This document shows, in pieces, positions 50,807-64,000 of a stretch of DNA of 64,000 nucleotides. Both the position numbers and the translations under genes were made by a program. Source of the stretch: Okamejei kenojei (lineage: Eukaryota); assembly GCA_035221665.1 (NCBI GenBank), contig CM069131.1, forward strand, positions 76,012,001-76,076,000. The letters are read 5' to 3'. Below the pieces are notes generated by a model that saw nothing but the letters and a program-made list of their open reading frames with translations, searched no databases and was not told the DNA's origin. Position 1 is the stretch's first letter. Every line of letters begins with the position of its first letter.

Positions 50807-52849
50807 TCAGTTTTCATTTTTCTCATCTTCCTCATTTATTGCAATCAAATTATCAGAGCTCAAGTGCATAAATTTTTGCATTAGATGAGGGGATTTAAGG
50901 AGAGCAGAAAATGATGTTTTTCTCCTAACAGTAGGAGATGATTTTTGTCTACTGATGCCCTTTGCTGAAAATGTACTGTTTATCTGTGTAGGCTTTGCTT
51001 GCTTGGATTCAGGAGCACCCAACATGTAGAACACATCTGCAGAAGCATCACAATTCAGGTACTGCCAGGGTTTTTTGCCACTATGGTCCCTTATATTAAA
51101 ATTTGCATGATATTTGTTAACTAAGTATTGAATGACTTTTAGTTGTCCATACATTGTGGCTATGTGCAGAGGAGTGTACCCACAGGTAGATTTAATGTTC
51201 ACGTTTAATTTTGTTCTCTGTTTCCTTGCACAACCAAAGAATTTGCTGAGTGCACGGTAGTTGCCATGCTTTGCTATCCAGTGAAGTACTGTATATCCAG
51301 AAATAAAATCCTTTTTCATGCCAATGCTGGGATCATCGGAGAACAAGGCACAGGCCTCTTCAAACATGCCCGCAGATGTTTTCACTATCCATTCATGCTC
51401 TTTAGAATCGAGTGGAACCAATGAAGATTCCTCCTCTTTCACTTTTAACAGTTCCTCTTTTTTCTGCTCCTTGAGGCTCGTTGCCTGGACCAAACTTTCT
51501 GGCCGATCCCTTGCGTTCCGAGGTAAATTTCCATCAGTCATTTTACAAACAGTGTGATGGTTGTTGACTGGTGACAATGGTTGGATTTTGTGAGGAAGCT
51601 CGTTGCTCTTGGTCACTTTAGGAGACGCATGGGTTTTGGCTGATGTGTTTTCTCCTTCACAATGCCGACTGTTACCCATTTGTTGCCTATTTCCTGCATG
51701 TAGTCTATCATTCAGTTTTCCCTGCTTCTTTGGGATACATTCTTCTGAACTTACAAATAGCTTAGCGTCGCCACCAGCCGATTGATCTTGCCATACTTTT
51801 GCGTTGCTGCTGTGTTTCTTCGATGATGAGGGGCTTACACGATGGTTGATCAATGTTGTATCACTGGGAGAAGGTGCAGTTCCCTCTATCCTGTGAGAAG
51901 GAATGACTTCCACGAAATTCGCGAAAGAATTACGGTCAGATTTATGCGATGTTTTTTCAGGAACGGGTTTTACAGATATAATCTCAGCGCTGCAGTTGGG
52001 AAGTTTTTTATGGGCAGGTTTCCCACTCCCTTTATGTTTAGCAACAGGTGGGGCGGCATAAGAAAGTATAGGCGAGGCTGTGGAAGAACCTAAAACAGGT
52101 TCATCGAAACTGTTGCCGCGATTGCCTTCACCGTTTAACAACCTGGCAGCCTCACTCGTACACAAAACAGACGCTGCAGAGTTTATTTTACTTTCTCCAG
52201 ACCTCTGTACTTTTGACCCCTCGGCCTTATTGTTCGCTGCCGTGCGATCCTCTTGACCCCGGGGTTGGTCCCCGCTGGCCCTTTCGCGACCTTCCCTGGC
52301 CTCGAGTTGTGTGAGACTCGCCACAGAGGCGCGGTCTCCACCTGGCAACCCTTTCGCCCGGTCCTTTGCCGCCTGTACAACAGCCCGGGACACGTCCGAC
52401 ACCGCCCCGGGTGAACTTCTGGGAGACTGGCGACTCCTGTCGCTCCCTTTCGGTGCCCCGAGCCCTTGAAGCCCTCCATCGGCTCCGGGTTCACCCGGTA
52501 GATGCGGAACCTGCCCGGTGTCCGCAGCCGGCGAGATCCTCTTGCCCGCCCTGTGCCCCTCATTCTCTCCTGTATCTGCAAGCCCGAGCCCCGCGTCGCT
52601 GGGACCGGATACTTCTTCGGGAATGAATTCCACATATCTCTTCCTCAGAAGGACGTACTTGACGCCGTCTTCCACCTTCACCACGGCCAGCGAGTTTACA
52701 AACTTCTTAAAGTGCTCGCGGTTCTGCAGCTGCCGCTCGGGGTCCCTCAGGAAGAGCCTGAAATGGGCGACCAAATCCGCATTCCTCACCTTCCCGCGGT
52801 GCTGAAGGAGGTAATCCAAAACAGTCTCTTGACTGAAAGAGTCAGCCAT
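50807..52849 (-). CDS. SOWAHB: Sosondowah ankyrin-repeat protein B (ANKRD56), single exon, 680 aa from MADSFSQ
   Basis: N-terminal SOWAH domain (SQETVLDYL...FLRDP...FKKFVNSLAVVK...GVKYVLLRKRY); ankyrin repeats (DFISGYTVLHWIAKHG, CGYTPLHIA, RDHSGKKPWQYL); Kozak AGCATGG; convergent to SHROOM3. Confidence 0.9.
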   Translation of the reverse strand: MADSFSQETVLDYLLQHRGKVRNADLVAHFRLFLRDPERQLQNREHFKKFVNSLAVVKVEDGVKYVLLRKRYVEFIPEEVSGPSDAGLGLADTGENEGHRAGKRISPAADTGQVPHLPGEPGADGGLQGLGAPKGSDRSRQSPRSSPGAVSDVSRAVVQAAKDRAKGLPGGDRASVASLTQLEAREGRERASGDQPRGQEDRTAANNKAEGSKVQRSGESKINSAASVLCTSEAARLLNGEGNRGNSFDEPVLGSSTASPILSYAAPPVAKHKGSGKPAHKKLPNCSAEIISVKPVPEKTSHKSDRNSFANFVEVIPSHRIEGTAPSPSDTTLINHRVSPSSSKKHSSNAKVWQDQSAGGDAKLFVSSEECIPKKQGKLNDRLHAGNRQQMGNSRHCEGENTSAKTHASPKVTKSNELPHKIQPLSPVNNHHTVCKMTDGNLPRNARDRPESLVQATSLKEQKKEELLKVKEEESSLVPLDSKEHEWIVKTSAGMFEEACALFSDDPSIGMKKDFISGYTVLHWIAKHGNYRALSKFFGCARKQRTKLNVNIKSTCGYTPLHIATMYGQLKVIQYLVNKYHANFNIRDHSGKKPWQYLNCDASADVFYMLGAPESKQAKPTQINSTFSAKGISRQKSSPTVRRKTSFSALLKSPHLMQKFMHLSSDNLIAINEEDEKNEN

Positions 52850-53060
52850 GCTGGATTTTGCAAAATGCTCATGCAAGCGTTGGTTGCAGCGGCGGCGGCA
52901 GCTCCGGGACTCTGCAGCGGGCGGGTCGCGTCTGGCGGTCGGCCAGCGCGCCGCCCCTCGCGTCTCCATACACCTGCCCCAAGGCCCGCCCCCCGCGCGT
53001 CTCATTGGCCGCTGCTCCCGGGGATCCAGGACCAGGTAGCGGCCGCTCGCCATAGGTGGG
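52250..53060 (-). promoter_or_regulatory. CpG island and probable SOWAHB promoter (GC boxes ~52950-52995, CCAAT ~53004-53008)
   Basis: CpG-rich against an AT-rich background; ccgcccc motifs and attgg. Confidence 0.6.
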
Positions 53061-53189
53061 GCTGCAGGTGAAATGCAGAGAGAGCTGCAGTGGAGTATTC
53101 AACCTGCTCCCTGTCTGCAAGTAAAACTTCAAGTGAGCCGTTTAACTCGCAGATTAATTGGCAAAATAAATGTCCCTTCATCAGTCAGA

Positions 53190-55760: not shown

Positions 55761-56680
55761 ATGAATAAAAGGTAACCCTGTGACAAGCATATTAACTTGT
55801 AATATCTGACTGTGCTTGATTCAATTAATTTACAGATGGATATACTATCCAAACAGATCAGATACATAGATACAATCAGCATGTTGCAGCACATGCCACA
55901 TTCAGCATCAAAGGTGCAGAGGTGAAAATGGTTGAGAGCTTTAAGTTCCTTGGCTTTAATTTTACCAATGGTCAAGACTCTCCGACCCAAAACGTCATCT
56001 ATTCCATTTCTCCAGTGATGCTGCCTGACCTGCTGAGTTACTCCAGCATTTTGTGTCTATCTTCAGTGTACACCAGCATCTGCAGTTCCTTCCTATGCAA
56101 TCAGTTCATACTCAAGTGAAATAGATGGTGCAAAAGGGGATGATACAGATTGCAGAATATAGTTCTCAGGATGGTGCTCAATGGGGTAGGGTTGAATCAA
56201 ACAGCTTATGGAAGGACCATTCAGAAGCATAATAATGGTGGGAAAGAAGCTGTTCCCAAGTCAGATAGTATGCATTTTCAAGCTTCTGCACCAGATGGGA
56301 GCAGGGAGAAGAAGGAATGATGAAGGTGGGACAAGTCATTGATTAGCTGGGCTACTTTTCCAAAACAGTGTGAAGTATAGATGGAGTCAATAATGGGAAA
56401 GCTGGACTGTGTGGTGCACTAGGATACATCTATAACTCTCTGCAATTTCTTGCATTCTTGGGGAAAGCTGTTCATAAACTAAGCCACGACAGCAACCCGT
56501 TGGGTCCCACGTTCACACGGGAGGGCTGCACCTCTTCACCAATTCCAATATTGGTGGCCTGTGGGGGGGCTTTCTGAAGCATTGGTATGGGTTCTTGGGG
56601 TGGCAGCTCAGTCCCTCAAGCCTGATGTGCTGGCAGCTCACTCACGGCTTGTGGGCTGACTCAAGGCTATTCCTTGAAAT

Positions 56681-56990
56681 TCCATTTCAAGCAGGGTGCA
56701 AGGCCACCAAATTCAAATCCATTTCCCTACCATTTCAAGCAGGGTGCAAGGCCACCAAATTCAAGTGCAGTTTCTTACCACTTCGAGCAGGGTGCAAGGC
56801 CACCAAATTCAAGTGCAGTTTCCTACCGCTTCAAGCAGGGTGCAAGGCCACCAAATTCAAGTGCAGTTTCATACCACTTCAAGCAGGGTGCAAGGACACC
56901 AAATTCAAATGCAGCTTCATACCATTTCATGCAGGGTGCGAGGCCACCACATTCAAATGCAGTTTCATACCATTTCAAGCAGGGTGAAAC
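56681..56990. repeat. 48-bp minisatellite, about 6.5 copies
   Basis: Unit ccatttcaagcagggtgcaaggccaccaaattcaagtgcagtttccta; gives 16-aa periodic ORFs. Confidence 0.92.
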
Positions 56991-57297
56991 CACCATAAAA
57001 CCACACAAAACACCAAACACGTAGTTCAGTTGACATTCAGTGTGTTCAGTTTATTCACAGCTCAGACAGAGTCGTGACCTCTCCCTCCCCCATCAAGCAG
57101 AGACTGAGCCACACCCACACTTCAGGGCTTTATAACCCCTCCCCCTCCCACCGGAAAAGGTGTGGCCTTCATGACAGGAGAGAGATTCTCAACATTTTTT
57201 AAACACTAATAGCTTTTATTTTTCATTGATGGGAAGAACCCTCTGCACCTGCTGAACGGAGGGGGACTGAGTAAGATGGCCAAAAATCACAGCCATA

Positions 57298-58906
57298 CAG
57301 TGGCTTGCAAAAATATTCATACCCCTTGAACCTTTCCACATTTTGTCACGTTACAACCACAAACGTAAATGTATTTTATTGGGATTTTATGTGATAGACC
57401 AACACAAAGTGGTGCATAATTGTGAAGTGGAAGGAAAATGATACATGTTTTTCAAATTTTTTTACAAATAAAAAACTGAAAAGTGTGGCGTGCAAAAGTA
57501 TTCTGCCCCCTATACTCTGATACCCCTAAATAAAATCCATTGCAACCAATTGCCTTCAGGAGTCACTTAATTAGTAAATCAAGTCCACTTGTGTGTAATC
57601 TAATCTCAGAATAAATATAGCTGCTCTGTGAAGGCCTCAGAAGTTTGTTAGAGAACATTAGTGAACAAACAGCATCATGAAGCCCAAGGAACACACCAGA
57701 CAGGTCAGGGATAAAGTTGTGGAGAGGTTTAAAGCAGGGTTGGGTTAAAAAAAAAATCCCAAGCTTTGAACATCTCACAGAGCACTGTTCAATCCATCAT
57801 CTGAAAATGGAAAGAGTATGGCAAAACTGCAAACCTACCAAGACATGGCCGTCCACCTAAACTGACAGGTCGGGCAAGGAGAGCATTGATCAGGGAAGCA
57901 GCCAAGGTAACTCTGGAGGAGCTGCAGAGATCCACAGCTCAGGTGGGAGAATCTGTCCACAGGACAACTATTAGTCGTGCACTCCACAAATCGGGCCTTT
58001 ATGGAAGAGTGGCATGAAGAAAGCCATTGTTGAAACAAAGCCATAAGAAGTCCTGTTTGCAGTTTGCCACAAGCCATGTGGGGGACACAGCAAACATGTG
58101 GAGGAAGGTGCTCTGGTCTGATGAGACCAAAATTGAAGTTTTTGGCCTAAATGCAAAATGATATGTGTGGCGGAAAACTAACACTGCACATCACCCTGAA
58201 CACACCATCCCCACTGTGAAACATGGTGGTGGCAGCATCATGCTGTGGGGATGCTTTTCTTCAGCAGGGACAGGGAAGCTGGTCAGAGTTGATGGGAAGA
58301 TGGATGGAGCCAAATACAGGGCTATCTTGGAAGAAAACCTGTTAGAGTCTGCAAAAGACTTGAGACTGGGGTGGAGGTTCACCTTCCAGCAGGACAACAA
58401 CCCTAAACATACAGCCAGAGCTACAATGGAATGGTTTAGATCAAAGCATATTCATGTGTTAGAATGCCCCAGTCAAAGTCCAGACCTAAATCCAATTGAG
58501 AATCTCTGGCAAGACTTGAAAATTGCTGTTCACAGACGCTCTCCATCCAATCTGACTGAGCTTGAGCTATTTTGCAAAGAAGAATGGGCAACAATTTCAG
58601 TCTCTAGATGTGCAAAGCTGGTAGAGACATACCCCAAAAGACTTGCAGCTCTAATTGCAGCGAAAGGTGGTTCTACGAAGTATTGACTCAGGGGGGAGCT
58701 GAACTACTTTTGCACGCCACACTTTTCAGTTTTTTATTTGTAATACAATTTGGAAACCATGTATCATTTTCCTTCCACTTCACAATTATGCACCACTTTG
58801 TGTTGGTCTTCACATAAAATCCCAATAAAATACATTTATGTTTGTGGTTGTAACGTGACAAAATGTGGAAAAGTTCAAGGGGTATGAATACTTTTGCAAG
58901 CCACTG
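57298..58906 (+). mobile_element. Full-length Passport-like Tc1 transposon with disrupted transposase (57677-58686)
   Basis: TA|cagtggcttgcaaaa...ttttgcaagccactg|TA, ~200-bp TIRs; MKPKEHTRQVRDKVVE...WSDETK...QQDNNPKH...[11 protein letters not shown]...[10 protein letters not shown]. Confidence 0.93.
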
Positions 58907-59011
58907 TAAGTGGTAGCGTTTTATCTAAAATCAATATACAGTGCAAACAGGAAGTTAGCCAAAGCCCCCAAGCCACCATTTGCAATTGTGCCTTTTCACT
59001 TCAAGCCAAAG

Positions 59012-59580
59012 TGTTGAACTCGGTTTTCGCTTACATCGGTTGTTTCGACAATAATCGACCGGACACCTGGGTTGGTTTAAACGTACGTTTATTTGGCAGG
59101 AGTCTTTACACAGGTCAGCAACCTAGCAAAGAGTCAAGCTCAATGCCCTTATTCGTAATGCCTTATATACATTTAATGCTACCGTTTATGTCTCCCACAT
59201 TACCCAATTAAGCAACAGACACGTACGCAATGGTCAAGATAACAGGCACGTACACATGGGGAGATTTTATTTAGTGGAACAATACTAGGGCTAAGATAGG
59301 TACATTCCTCAGACTTTCTTGCGCGGTGGTTTGTATATTCCTCAGCCTTCTGGTAGCCAGCCATCTCAGTCAGACGGGTGCGGGGAATACCAAAGTCGCG
59401 AATATGCTGCAACAGCAGGACAATGTGTATTTCTCATGACCACAACTTCCTGAAATCTGCAGCCACATAGTCAGCAACTTTGGTCAGCAGACATTTTATG
59501 TTTTAATCCAGTTCACCTGGCCAAACCGTTTTACCTTCACAGAACAATCTTACAGCGTTTATTCAAGATTTACATTCACA
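59012..59580 (-). mobile_element. ERV 3' LTR (~569 bp)
   Basis: Follows PPT AAAAGGGGGGAT; termini TGTGAA...TTCAACA; TATATAA at ~59163-59169 and AATAAA at ~59088-59093 on the minus strand; the left boundary is inferred from the terminal inverted repeat. Confidence 0.8.
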
Positions 59581-61247
59581 ATCCCCCCTTTTGCTATTCT
59601 TATGGCAACACTCATTGTCCAGTAAAAGTCCCATTCGCTGAATCGCGTAATCTTCTAGTTCCCTGGCCACCGTCTCTTGGACCGTCCGGCCCTTTTCCTT
59701 CAATTCTCCTTCCTCACTCACTTAATCGGCTTCGCTGTCGTTGGGCAATGGTAACAGTCTCTCCTGCTCACGCTGTAATATCAACATTCGTACAGAATTT
59801 TTAGCTACCTCGGGGGTGGTCCCCAAACCCGATAAAGCCATCATTAATCGGGCTATGATACATTTCACAATGGCAATCCCCACAAATAAGCAAGTAACTA
59901 CTATAGCAGCATAGATGGCCATGCTGATAATCCAGTTATAAAATTCCCCAAATCCCCAATTCCCCCATCCCTGGTTTTCATTTATTCCATCCAAAAAGGT
60001 GGTAATCTTGAACCCCCATCATACATTTCCCTTTTACGACGGTACAGGTCCCCCCTTCTCTAGCCAATAAGTAATCGAGCGCATATCTATTTTGTAGGGG
60101 AAACATCGTCATTTCGGACATCTGGGTTTTCACTGCCTCCAACGCTCCGGTTGTTCCATTGCCCAGAATTGTCAGGCCACAAACAAGGTAATTCCGGTTT
60201 TTGGCTGCTTCACCTTTACCCACTCCTCCCATGGTTAGCATGCTTAATAATCCTCATCCGATGGAATGTCCTGTGGGTAGCTCCCCTGATCCCTGGATTT
60301 TTCCATTGCACGCAAAACTCGGCCGACACCGCCCTTCGATGAACCCGAGCAATGGGCTTAGTCCATTGCTCGGGACAAGGTACCGTGGTTGGCACCAATG
60401 CTCCAACTGCCAAGTTCTTGGGGAAAGGGGGTTTTAGGACATTGGTTCCTTTCCCATTAAAGAAGAAGTAATATCCTTCCTCCGTACATGATGATCCATT
60501 ACAGCCCCTTCGGGTATTAATGACTTCTCCCCCTCCAGACCAGTCCCTCCACGCTTCACCAATCCCATTGCTATAACTGGGGATTGGCAGGTGATGGGAT
60601 CCTACCGTCAGATGGGTCCCGTTAGCCCATCCACACAACAGCTGAAATCCAGCATTTACAGGGACACATTCCTTAGACGCCTTACATTGGGCTCCTTTAT
60701 AGGTAAGGTTACATGCGGAGCCGTGAACGGGCCCTTGAAGAGCGCAAGTGAGATTGTTTTTAACATATATGACTATACACCCGTGTCCTTGGTTACTAAA
60801 ACAATTTCATATTGCCTAATGTCATTATCGGTGGTGAAGTTACATGGCCTAGCCGATGTCCTTGACACCGTCCGAGATTCCATTATAGCAATTGTCGTAG
60901 TGGTGGTTATTGTTCTTAGGGAGCGGTAAGCAGTTAGCCGGTGGAGCGAGAAGCCCATCATAGCTGATGATAACGGGCTTGACAGGGACCGGTTTTTCGT
61001 CCTGGCACTTCACCAGTCATTCTGCCCCATGCAGGGGATGGGATAAACAGGGAGGTAACCAATGTCATTCGTGGATAACAAACCACCTGCCCCTTCCCGA
61101 ATAGTTTGTTGTGTGCCCGAACAAATAGATTGGGGTTTTCTCGTTCCCCTTTCTTTTCTCGTTTGTTCCGTCTGTATTCAGGCTTTGTCCATTTCCAACT
61201 GAAACCGATTAACCCTACAGTGGTCGTCACACATATTAATGCCACAT
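59563..61247 (-). pseudogene. env: ERV env, frameshifted: signal peptide, SU, basic cleavage site, TM with internal fusion loop, ISD, CX6C, membrane anchor and tail
   Basis: Fragments ALICVTTTVGLIGFSW, RVHRR|AVSAEFC, LQNRYALDYLLAREGGTCTVVKGKC, WIISMAIYAAIVVTCLFVGIAIVKC. Confidence 0.88.
59581..59592 (-). other. Retroviral polypurine tract
   Basis: AAAAGGGGGGAT directly before the LTR TG. Confidence 0.85.
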
Positions 61248-61279
61248 GAAGACCCTCACCTTAGCGGTTTATTTCGTAT

Positions 61280-61333: not shown

Positions 61334-64000
61334 TTAATTTGTACCATACGTTTCGTGGACCGGATCCCTCTCCCTGACCTCAACCTCCCCCCTTATCTCC
61401 CCCCTTTGCTTGGTGTCACCAAGCACTTTACAATGGTGCAATGCACCCATGCCAATCGTCCTTCCACCTTTACCGCAGTGGGGTTGGTAAGGAGAACCTG
61501 GAAGGGGCCCAACCATCGAGGAGAAAGGGTGTCCTTATGAACCCAATTCTTAATCAACACATAAGAACCCGGGGTGATCCGTCTCTCAACGGGAAAGTCT
61601 ATGTCGCCCACATAAGCGGCCTTGACCTCCCCGTGAATCTCATGCAGGGCCCTTGTAAAGGCAAGGACGTAAGAGACCATCTCCTCCGTCATATGATGCA
61701 ATGTCATTGTGGCCGGCATAATGTCCGTCCAGGGGGTGCGCAGGGGTCAGCCATAGATGATCTCTGCAGGAGACAACCTTGTCTTCCCTGCTGGAATGAC
61801 TCTGATCTGAAACAAAGCAACAGGCAACATTTTAACCCAGGTGGAGCCCGATTGGTCCACCAGCTTGGCAAGCTTGGTCTTCAGGGTCTGGTTCAAGCGT
61901 TCCACCATTCCTGCAGCCTGTGGGCGATAAGCACAATGCAGCCGCTGGGTTACGCCCAGCTGTCGGTACAATTCTTTATTAATAGCGGCAATAAAGTGAG
62001 AGCCGTTATCCGAACTAATGGCATTTGGAACCCCAAAGCGAGGAACAAACTGCCGTAACAAAGCCACCAGCGTAGAAGCAGTGCAATGAGTGGTTGGAAA
62101 GGCTTCAATCCACCTAGAAAACACATCAACAATAACCAGCACATGTTTATAAGACTAACACTTAGGCAAATCAATAAAATCCATCTGTAAGGTTTCAAAC
62201 GGAGCAGTAGGTAATGGGGTACGCCCGTCTGGCAGACAACTCCCTTACCAGGGTTGTGTGTAGCACCGGTGAGGCACCATGCGCTAGTTTGGGCTGCCAA
62301 AACCTTAAGGCGACGATGCCACCATGCCTGTAAGAGAGCGTCCACTAGCAAGGTGGCCCCACAGTGAGTGGCTAGATGTAGGCAATCAACGACCCAGGTC
62401 GTTAACTGGTCTGTCATACAGGTCTGTCCGGCCGGCGTGAGCCACAGTCCAGAGTCAGCCTTCCGACAGCCCAGCTGCTCCTATTCCATTATAACATCAA
62501 CAGAGGTGTCCCCCTGTAAGAGCAGTACATCATTCTTGGTTGGCATAGGTTTCTCAGATTCAGACGAGCCCATATAAATGCTTTTCACCCGTCTCATCAT
62601 ACTGCCCTTAGATATACCACATGAAGCGCACTTAGCCACTTCATCAACCACCCTGTTACCGATTTGGACCGGGGAATCTGTCGTGTGGGCTGCACATTTG
62701 ATTACGGCTACCGCAGAGGGCAGAAGGATAGCATTCAACAGGTCAGAGACCAGGATCTGATTGGCAATCTTATGGCCCGTCGAGGTGAGGATTCCCCTAT
62801 TTTTTCCATAACTGTCCGAAATCGTGAACGACTCCAAATGCGTATCGGGAGTCGGTGTAAATATTGACGGAGCGTCCCTCCGCGAGAACACATGCTCGGG
62901 TGGGGGCAAACAACTCAGCCTGCTGAGCTGAAAACGGTGGGTCAAAACTGCCACAATCCAGCAAGTTTCCATCTTGCTTAACTACCGCATAGCCTGACAG
63001 ACGGCGTCCCTGCTCGTCGATGGACGAACTTCCATCGGTATAGAGGATCAAATCTGGAGAGGATAGAAGCTGATCGCTAAGGTCAGGGCTGCGGACTGGT
63101 ATCCACGAGAATAGCCTCCAAGCAATTATGGTCGCATGGGGCGAGGAGATCAGGAGGAGAGCAGAGAAACTCAGCAGGGTTGATTGTAGTGCAGTGCCGG
63201 AACTGTAGCTTGGGATTATTCAACAGGTAAATCTCATATTTATTTTGTCCCAGTAGAGCGGTCACGGAGTGGGAGGAGTATAGGGTAATGTCCTCCTGGA
63301 GAGTCAGGTTGGCGGCCGACAGAAGACTATTTTATACTGCTGTCAAAATCTGTGTACAATGGGGATACCCCAGTGCCACAGGGTCTAACTTGGACCAATA
63401 ATACTCTACTGGTCGGTGCTTATCCCCATGCAGCTGGGTCAAAACCGCAGTGGCACATTCGCCCAGGACGGTACAATACAGCTGAAAAGGTCAATCATAC
63501 AGTGGTCTTCCCAGCGCAGGAGCCTTCTGCAGGGCCTCTCGTAGATTACTGAAGGCGGTCAAGGCTTCATCTGACAATACAAAGGTACCTTCCTGGCTGG
63601 TGTAAGGGGTCAGGTGCTTTATGTCCAGGGCCACATTCGGAATCCACTGACGGCAGTAGTTGATCATTCCCTACCACTGTCGCATTCCCCTGGCTGACCT
63701 GGGGGGCGGTGTCCTGTAAATGGGGTCTGTGCAGCTTTCATCCAACCAACGGCCATCTGCTGAGATTATGACTCCGAGGAATTTCACTTCCTTTTGTCCG
63801 ACATGTACTTTGGAGGGGGACACAACGTACCCCAATGCCTTTATAGCCTCCCTATTCTGCTCCTCCGTTTCACTGGCCAGTATAAGGTCATCAATGTACT
63901 GGATCAATGCAGACCCCTCAGGTAACTGCAGGTCTTGTAATTGCTGTTGCAGACAACGAGAAAATAGGGTCGGCGAGTTTACAAAGCCCTGCGGCAATCT
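61334..64000 (-). pseudogene. pol: ERV pol (RT, RNase H, integrase), class I epsilon-like, disrupted; continues beyond window
   Basis: PQGFVNSP, YIDD, LYTDGSS, SAQQAEL, IYTDSRYAFGVVHDFG, VDVFSRWIEAFP, SDNGSHF, GMVERLNQTLK, PRWLGPFQVLL. Confidence 0.93.

Follow-up and report, generated by a model that had tools for sequence, protein, structure and literature searches.

RESULTS

Provirus anatomy: a class I element with a disrupted env gene

The window analyzed here, a 64,000-nucleotide stretch of the Okamejei kenojei genome (contig CM069131.1, positions 76,012,001 to 76,076,000), carries a dead endogenous retrovirus (ERV) of class I whose env gene is broken; the locus of interest is the part of that gene encoding the transmembrane (TM) subunit. 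The provirus spans about 9.8 kb and continues beyond the window into region L031; LTR, gag, pro, pol, env, and LTR were found in that order, together with a primer-binding site, a polypurine tract, and a target duplication. On the minus strand, the window holds the 3' LTR (TG...CA, 59012..59580), the polypurine tract read from the sequence just before it (59581..59592), the env gene with several frameshifts and stops (59610..61260), a broken integrase with rve core and MLVIN_C (61396..62151), a broken RNase H (62800..63216), and a reverse transcriptase (RT) with a YIDD motif (63674..64000) that runs on into L031, where the protease, the gag zinc knuckle, the primer site, and the 5' LTR (L031:6256-6817) were located. 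The 4-bp target-site duplication was read from the sequence at 59008..59011, with its twin flanking the 5' LTR at L031:6818-6821. The primer site corresponds to a tRNA end, and one of four genomic matches examined was called tRNA-Leu(CAG). The two LTRs differ by 19 substitutions over 569 columns (96.7% alike, K2P 0.034), which, under an assumed rate of 0.5-2e-9 substitutions per site per year, places the insertion roughly 9-34 million years ago.

Judged by its sequence matches, the RT is class I: the best match was MLV-type (E 1e-47), followed by foamy virus (1e-36) and HIV (1e-12), with no epsilon RT among the references returned. An ESM Atlas look-up of the RT left pol without a class. Elsewhere in the skate genome, RTs of copies with the same kind of Env were 52-71% identical to that of the window (2 of 10 regions with RT), and the RT of a copy from a CX6CC Env family was 51% identical (1 of 10 regions with RT); these values, from a very thin sample, are compatible with env swapping within the skate genome.

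Several other features were recorded nearby. About 0.8 kb of the leader/gag region (L031:4938-5712) is missing from the related copy L045 and is likely a later insertion. A Tc1/mariner-type transposon remnant with terminal inverted repeats lies about 100 bases from the 3' LTR (57297-58909) and includes a DDE_3 frame (58162-58686). A tandem array with a 48-bp period occupies 56638-57021, and a minus-strand frame of 763 amino acids without introns (50807-53098), with ankyrin repeats at its C terminus, resembles a SOWAH-family gene.

Layout of the env remnant

The window copy of env makes no protein. Its four pieces are 80-91% identical to an intact 561-amino-acid protein of the little skate (P0001, XP_055521933), and its TM frame is 93% identical to a Leucoraja erinacea protein. 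A sequencing-run search listed no RNA run carrying the sequence. The pieces were left unjoined, and the continuous layout was taken from P0001: signal peptide, surface subunit (SU), basic site at 306-310, Cys317, hydrophobic core, Cys361, sequon at 368, immunosuppressive domain (ISD), Cys406-X6-Cys413, Met414, and a membrane anchor near 455-485.

The corresponding minus-strand elements of the window begin with the basic SU/TM cleavage site RVHRR (60333..60347) and the first fusion-loop cysteine (60312..60314). A frameshift within the loop (60272..60274) precedes the hydrophobic core of this internal loop (60224..60271), which is itself interrupted by an in-frame stop (60254-60256). The second loop cysteine (60179..60181) aligns with the loop cysteine of filovirus GP2 and is followed, 7 codons on, by an N-glycan sequon (N-G-T) at the start of heptad region HR1 (60152..60160). 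Then come an ISD-like segment (LQNRYALDYLL..., 60047..60097), a CX6C motif with Met in place of the third cysteine of CX6CC (60020..60046, Cys codons at 60046/60025), a frameshifting deletion just past it, defined relative to three other copies (60005..60008), and an approximately placed membrane-spanning segment (59842..59934). The loop cysteine codons, at 60314 and 60181, are 44 codons apart, and the first cysteine of CX6C lies 45 codons past the second loop cysteine.

A first-pass annotation made from the sequence alone had listed these motifs, and all that it listed were located on the minus strand where it had placed them. It had put the frameshift at about 60285; the frame actually changes near 60273, and the ELPT in its reading is therefore out of frame. 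Of the loop spacing of 44-45 codons that it gave, 44 was found and 45 was not. The second frameshifting deletion near 60005 and the Met after CX6C had been missed.

Conservation of the loop cysteines and of the missing third cysteine

A search of the skate's own genome scored 150 of 1781 candidates, and conservation was counted over the 30 top-scoring loci, one of which is the window copy. The loop cysteines that the first-pass annotation had described are conserved in the family: of the copies aligned with confidence at each position, 23 of 24 retain Cys1 and 27 of 28 retain Cys2. The HR1 sequon retains Asn in 30/30 and Thr in 28/30. The third cysteine of CX6CC was found in none of these 30 copies, position 414 being Met, Ile, or Thr. 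Twelve weaker Env matches were also fetched from this genome, and the 11 that could be classified all had CC motifs and no loop cysteine pair. Those at L032-L038 and L040-L043 belong to two further Env families, with CX6CC in the first and CX7CC in the second; both lack the loop pair and have long open frames of up to 778 amino acids in 3-kb stretches.

Database proteins of the skate/shark Env family, with named relatives from Leucoraja, Scyliorhinus, Mobula, Heterodontus, and Pristiophorus, are likewise CX6C without the third cysteine and form one clade (98/95 and 99/98). In all seven family proteins measured, polar residues surround Cys1, the TM start is polar, and the most hydrophobic 13-mer, which lacks proline, starts 15-24 residues after Cys1; the loop hydrophobic core has two prolines in Marburg and Lloviu viruses, one in a bird Env, and none in the family. 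The N-terminal fusion peptide of an ordinary gamma-type Env was not found, as the TM start is polar and the hydrophobic peak internal. P0001, P0004, and P0005, all from Leucoraja erinacea and annotated only as uncharacterized proteins, are intact 561-amino-acid frames differing at 3 and 8 positions; three near-identical intact frames indicate that the family was recently active in this species.

At the SU/TM junction, a furin-type site occurs in 3 of 10 family proteins, and P0003, P0008, P0009, P0012, P0015, P0016, and P0018 carry R-x-[LIV]-x-x-R, a motif that presumably recalls the SKI-1/S1P site of arenaviruses. SU and TM pieces of a family Env make up the end of one Scyliorhinus gene model, P0010 (LDLRAD3 isoform X3), probably through mis-joining of the model or exonisation of an ERV.

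Likeness to filovirus GP2 in the heptad core and the loop interior

The unjoined 90-amino-acid TM frame matched Pfam PF22307 (Ebola-like_HR1-HR2) above the cut-off, at E 2.2e-6. A PDB search with the same frame returned filovirus GP2 first (best E 7.4e-12, top match 6BP2_B, Marburg GP2), with gamma-type TMs (E 2e-4 to 5e-3) and the ASLV TM (E 6e-3) at lower ranks. The gap-free identity to Ebola GP2, estimated at about 22/46 in the first-pass annotation, is exactly 22/46 against the database Mayinga sequence; four filovirus representatives gave 19-21/46 core identities. Among 87 loop-less Envs from the match list, which were chosen by likeness to the query, identities ranged from 14 to 23 of 46 (mean, 18.7), and because 10 of the 87 reach 22 or 23, a score of 22/46 is not by itself filovirus specific. 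Within the loop-type TMs, core identity is highest to filoviruses (20.2 versus 15-18 of 46).

The family and the filovirus GP1,2 of Ebola, Marburg, Lloviu, and Mengla viruses are alike in loop cysteine spacing (45 in the latter, 44 here), in a Cys2-to-CX6C distance of 45, in the sequon at +7, and in 19-22/46 core identities. The filovirus proteins differ in having CX6CC and a loop interior unrelated by sequence, and the family is without a mucin-like region. When the loop interior was compared with those of Ebola, Marburg, Mengla, and Lloviu viruses, 817, 99, 421, and 143 of 1000 shuffles, respectively, scored equally well. It does resemble the loops of the reptarenavirus CAS virus (0/1000 shuffles as good), Anolis (11), and Tapajos virus (21), and a loop profile run on 105 targets gave E 4e-6 for CAS virus and 0.6 for Marburg virus. 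CAS virus GP2 shares a loop spacing of 45 and the loop core G-W-G-x-x-x-x-x-T-L/M-G with the family, and it differs in having CX7CC and no SU sequence match. Of the GP2/ASLV-like architecture proposed in the first-pass annotation, the Cys-bounded internal loop and the sequon stand, but the third cysteine and the loop proline are absent, and the loop interior itself is not GP2-like in sequence according to the shuffle tests.

SU homology to Env-Mab2 and, through it, to Tapajos virus

An SU-only profile was built from ten family proteins and run against 77 SU regions and 77 reversed decoys. Its strongest non-family match was Mabuya Env-Mab2 (E 1.9e-13), ahead of the second such match (0.0064) and of the best decoy (0.056). 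With Mab2 added, the profile reached the Tapajos virus GP at E 3.6e-5, Marburg virus remaining at 0.59, and a profile made from the Mab2 and Tapajos SUs ranked family members first. In pairwise scoring, where an unrelated Env reached z 5.5, family-Mab2 comparisons gave z 4-17, with 0/200 shuffles as good for 5/5 family members, and Mab2-Tapajos gave z 17-20; the direct family-Tapajos comparison, at z up to 1.7, was not significant. For Marburg, Mengla, and Lloviu viruses, neither profile nor pairwise comparison produced any match at the SU sequence level. Tapajos GP (P0042) and Mab2 (P0111) align end to end (27% over 463 amino acids, E 2e-43), and this whole-length alignment, SU included, suggests that a complete env was taken rather than the ectodomain alone. 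Coverage by the family profile was 331 columns for Mab2, 202 for Tapajos, and 115 for Marburg. Extension of the profile alignment into the SU C terminus was dropped as evidence since Mab3 shows the same extension. ESM Atlas look-alikes of the SU fell in Avian_gp85/TLV_coat clusters (0.92-0.93), a lead only.

On these sequence comparisons, we consider the family SU homologous to that of Env-Mab2 and, through Mab2, to that of Tapajos GP. The likely nearest non-shark kin are thus the lizard Env-Mab2 and Tapajos GP, nearer than Ebola virus. All three have the loop cysteine pair and lack the third cysteine, are sisters in the TM tree, and share an N-terminal SU motif N-x-F...H...G...CY and a C-terminal SU C-P. 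Mab2 and Tapajos GP differ in having CX7C, a 38-residue loop, and 21% overall identity, and Mab2 lacks the HR1 sequon. The family, Mab2, and Tapajos all have the SU cysteines of VCY and PCP, whereas the Anolis-type group has neither. This squamate-type Env clade (P0039, P0043, P0048, P0051, P0085, and P0138, including Anolis and Pseudonaja) is separate from the family; its members have the loop cysteines and lack both the third cysteine and the two terminal SU cysteines.

TM trees and competing placements

Tree input comprised 158 proteins, 128 with an anchorable core, and two near-duplicates were dropped; tarsier and Varanus elements were left out, and bird ERV Envs stood in for ASLV. Loop-bearing TMs fell on one side of a branch at 79/88 (127 rows by 86 columns) and at 86/89 in a 50-row tree from which three odd loop rows were dropped and for which 16 outgroups were chosen. 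With this moderate support, loop-less Envs are set apart from the family TM and the TMs of filoviruses, reptarenaviruses, and ALV-like Envs, as the first-pass reading had proposed. For 32 loop-type TMs aligned over loop and core (123 columns), the family grouped with Tapajos and Mab2 at 93/94. A single change of third-cysteine state on the TM tree was not used as evidence, as it rests on a 36/0 branch.

In the competing placement that survives best, the cartilaginous-fish ERV ectodomains are sister to ebola-, cueva-, marburg-, and dianlovirus GP2, and the third cysteine went missing separately in the family and in Tapajos/Mab2. Such a grouping received a posterior probability of 0.83 in PMC11521997. 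It fits the PDB and Pfam searches, whose best matches are filovirus GP2, and several features that speak against Mab2/Tapajos kinship: NxNxLVC before HR1 and the CX6 spacing are common to the family and filoviruses, whereas Tapajos and Mab2 have CX7, and the HR1-to-CX6C core is 36% identical to Marburg versus 26% to Tapajos. The predicted SU of the relative P0015 also matches GP1 best (see below), and an AU test did not reject a family-plus-ebola/marburg clade (p 0.137). That clade appeared, however, in only 2 to 107 of 1000 bootstrap trees across three data sets: 2 for loop and core, 8 against 873 for family plus Tapajos/Mab2 without the third-cysteine column, and 107 against 763 with the core alone. 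Together with the dissimilar loop interior (99-817/1000 shuffles as good) and an SU that matches none of the Marburg, Mengla, and Lloviu viruses in sequence, these counts make the sister placement less likely. A single clade uniting Tapajos with every other filovirus GP was rejected by an AU test (p 0.022), in agreement with the separate capture published in PMC11521997.

A mosaic Env, formed by recombination inside env so that SU and loop go with Mab2/Tapajos/reptarenavirus and the heptad core with ebola/marburg, would accommodate the CAS virus loop match, the SU match to Mab2, and the core identity to filoviruses. We consider it unlikely: the core-only tree still favors Tapajos/Mab2 (763/1000), and unequal rates account for the pattern with no recombination. 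Far less probable is that the Env is of the ordinary gamma type, its fusion peptide N-terminal and its cysteines and Ebola likeness owed to chance or general gamma-type similarity. The loop-less Envs that reach 22/46 and the moderate loop-clade support lean that way, but retention of both cysteines across copies and species refutes it. The polar TM start with its internal hydrophobic peak, a Cys2-to-CX6C spacing identical to that of filoviruses, and the rarity of a cysteine near the loop position in the loop-less clade (1 of 86 proteins, P0047) also tell against it. An integrated filovirus glycoprotein gene, suggested by the top database matches, is refuted by the position of env between integrase and polypurine tract/3' LTR of a full provirus; the lack of an SU/GP1 sequence match to ebola/marburg also tells against it.

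Predicted structure of the SU

A model of P0001 built from 20 sequences had a mean pLDDT of 46, and its search against the viral library was uninformative. For the sawshark relative P0015 (33% identical), modeling reached pLDDT of at least 70 at 112 residues, located in the SU; the TM was of low confidence in both models, which gave no disulfide pairings. Against 48,161 representative solved chains, the P0015 model reached Z 5 with nine, eight of them filovirus GP1 (Z 5.5-7.6; best, Z 7.6, rmsd 3.3, 96 aligned residues, 19% identity). Syncytin-2 SU scored Z 5.5 (rmsd 3.0, 82 aligned), SIV/HIV gp120 and HERV-K SU scored 3.1-3.9 (gp120, 3.9), and unrelated chains scored at most 3.3. The absence of ASLV SU from the fold match lists carries no weight. 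With Foldseek, filovirus GP1 filled the ten best PDB rows, but no PDB match fell below E 0.001, and the single BFVD match below that value was V5NYT7, the F-env of Chelonid herpesvirus 5 (E 5e-4), a turtle herpesvirus protein whose origin from an Env has already been published. In the predicted fold, the beta-sheet domain of the P0015 SU thus appears to superpose on the GP1 core and on retroviral SU, with middling scores but with the top ranks going to the homologues expected; a domain shared by retroviral SU and filovirus GP1 has been published previously (Hotzel preprints).

DISCUSSION

Our preferred reading, to which we give a probability of about 0.8, is that the window holds a dead class I ERV env from a loop-type family without the third cysteine, whose fusion machinery was likely GP2/ASLV-like, whose subunits were likely not joined by a disulfide, and whose nearest non-shark kin are likely Env-Mab2 and Tapajos virus.

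Building on the observed provirus anatomy, motifs, conservation, and sequence kinship, we infer how such an Env may have worked. Cleavage, a disulfide-closed loop that inserts into the membrane, and collapse into a six-helix bundle make up the mechanism described for the class in PMC9967133. By analogy, the Env precursor would be cut at the basic site, the two loop cysteines would close a loop that enters the host membrane, the glycan-bearing HR1 would fold with HR2 into a six-helix bundle, and CX6C would form the chain-reversal loop. The bond from TM to SU is made by the third cysteine of CX6CC in gamma-type Envs and in filoviruses (PMC3758190; bioRxiv 2023.10.07.561363). That bond was likely absent here because the motif is CX6C and none of the 30 best copies has the third cysteine, and SU and TM would then have been held noncovalently. 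The conserved SU cysteines of VCY (N-terminal) and PCP (C-terminal) are perhaps paired with each other. The mature-SU cysteine count is even in P0001, P0012, Mab2, and Tapajos and odd in P0003 and P0015, both of which carry CXXC, so that a different SU-TM link may exist.

The main proposal of the first-pass annotation, a cartilaginous-fish ERV carrying an Env of the Cys-bounded fusion-loop class, is upheld and bears on the origin of filovirus GP, but it is not new. Filovirus-like ectodomains were reported in ERVs of Leucoraja, Amblyraja, Scyliorhinus, Chiloscyllium, and Rhincodon by Nino Barreat and Katzourakis in 2024 (PMC11521997), so the family has very likely been catalogued in large part already. 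In their tree, ectodomains of Chiloscyllium, Scyliorhinus, Amblyraja, and Leucoraja are sister to ebola/cueva/marburg/dianlovirus (0.83), and Tapajos joins lizard elements (1.0). Their elements share with ours skate and shark hosts, an LTR-flanked env position, and 6BP2_B as the best match, tabulated there for Leucoraja loci; their Leucoraja elements span 5.8 kb, compared with 9.8 kb for the window provirus. The window env has what delimits their clade, an HR1-HR2 domain with filovirus GP as best viral match inside a cartilaginous-fish ERV. Compared by description, the two sets are very likely the same family. We therefore regard the window env as a further member of a published group, to which are added the missing third cysteine, SU kinship to Mab2/Tapajos, and a GP1-like SU. 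No description of the loop, the missing third cysteine, or the SU kinship was found in the text of PMC11521997 examined, and the words "cysteine," "disulfide," "fusion," and "surface" occur nowhere in the text of its preprint that was searched. Nor was the missing third cysteine, the Mab2/Tapajos SU homology of this family, or the match of the predicted P0015 SU to GP1 found in the literature searched, the coverage of which was incomplete. PMC11089739 treats filovirus-like matches of this kind as ERV cross-matches.

Cys-flanked fusion peptides were unknown outside birds when Henzy and Johnson wrote in 2013 (PMC3758190); they are now reported in bats, and alpha-like envelopes in reptiles (PMC13568524). 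With these avian gamma-type (alpha-like) Envs (ASLV, Mab3/4, and bat CHIRalphaEnv), the family appears from sequence to share a Cys-flanked internal fusion peptide soon after the cleavage site, the HR1 sequon, an ISD before the Cys motif, and, in P0001, an SU without CXXC. It differs in lacking the third cysteine and a proline in the hydrophobic core, in occupying a separate TM branch, and in loop length (40-44; the bird/Mab3 proteins examined have 36-38). Chen et al. (bioRxiv 10.1101/2021.11.23.469661) defined nine classes of anamniote gamma-type Env, with CXnC subtypes and three novel fusion peptides, in a set that covers six hosts among cartilaginous fish and in which epsilon-related pol occurs together with gamma-type Env. 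In the portions of their text available, no Cys-flanked loop is described in the new classes, which may already include the skate/shark family.

A broader proposal, which we rate at even odds, is that sharks and skates, lizards (Env-Mab2), and Tapajos virus share a fourth kind of Env, with an internal fusion loop closed by a disulfide and no SU-TM disulfide, that Tapajos virus took a whole env with both SU and TM, that the compact family SU is the closest retroviral stand-in so far for the ancestor of GP1, and that the entire GP1,2 is a captured retroviral Env. In our preferred reading, the family is one of several retroviral Env lineages in the class that gave RNA viruses their spikes. Published trees used the heptad ectodomain only; evidence from the loop, from the SU, and from the absent third cysteine leads to Mab2/Tapajos instead and suggests that whole env genes were captured. 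None of the three Env types defined by Henzy and Johnson (PMC3758190) accommodates a fusion-loop Env that lacks an SU-TM disulfide, and such an Env would test whether this fold needs the bond. The skate/shark family offers a natural outgroup for reading the evolution of GP1.
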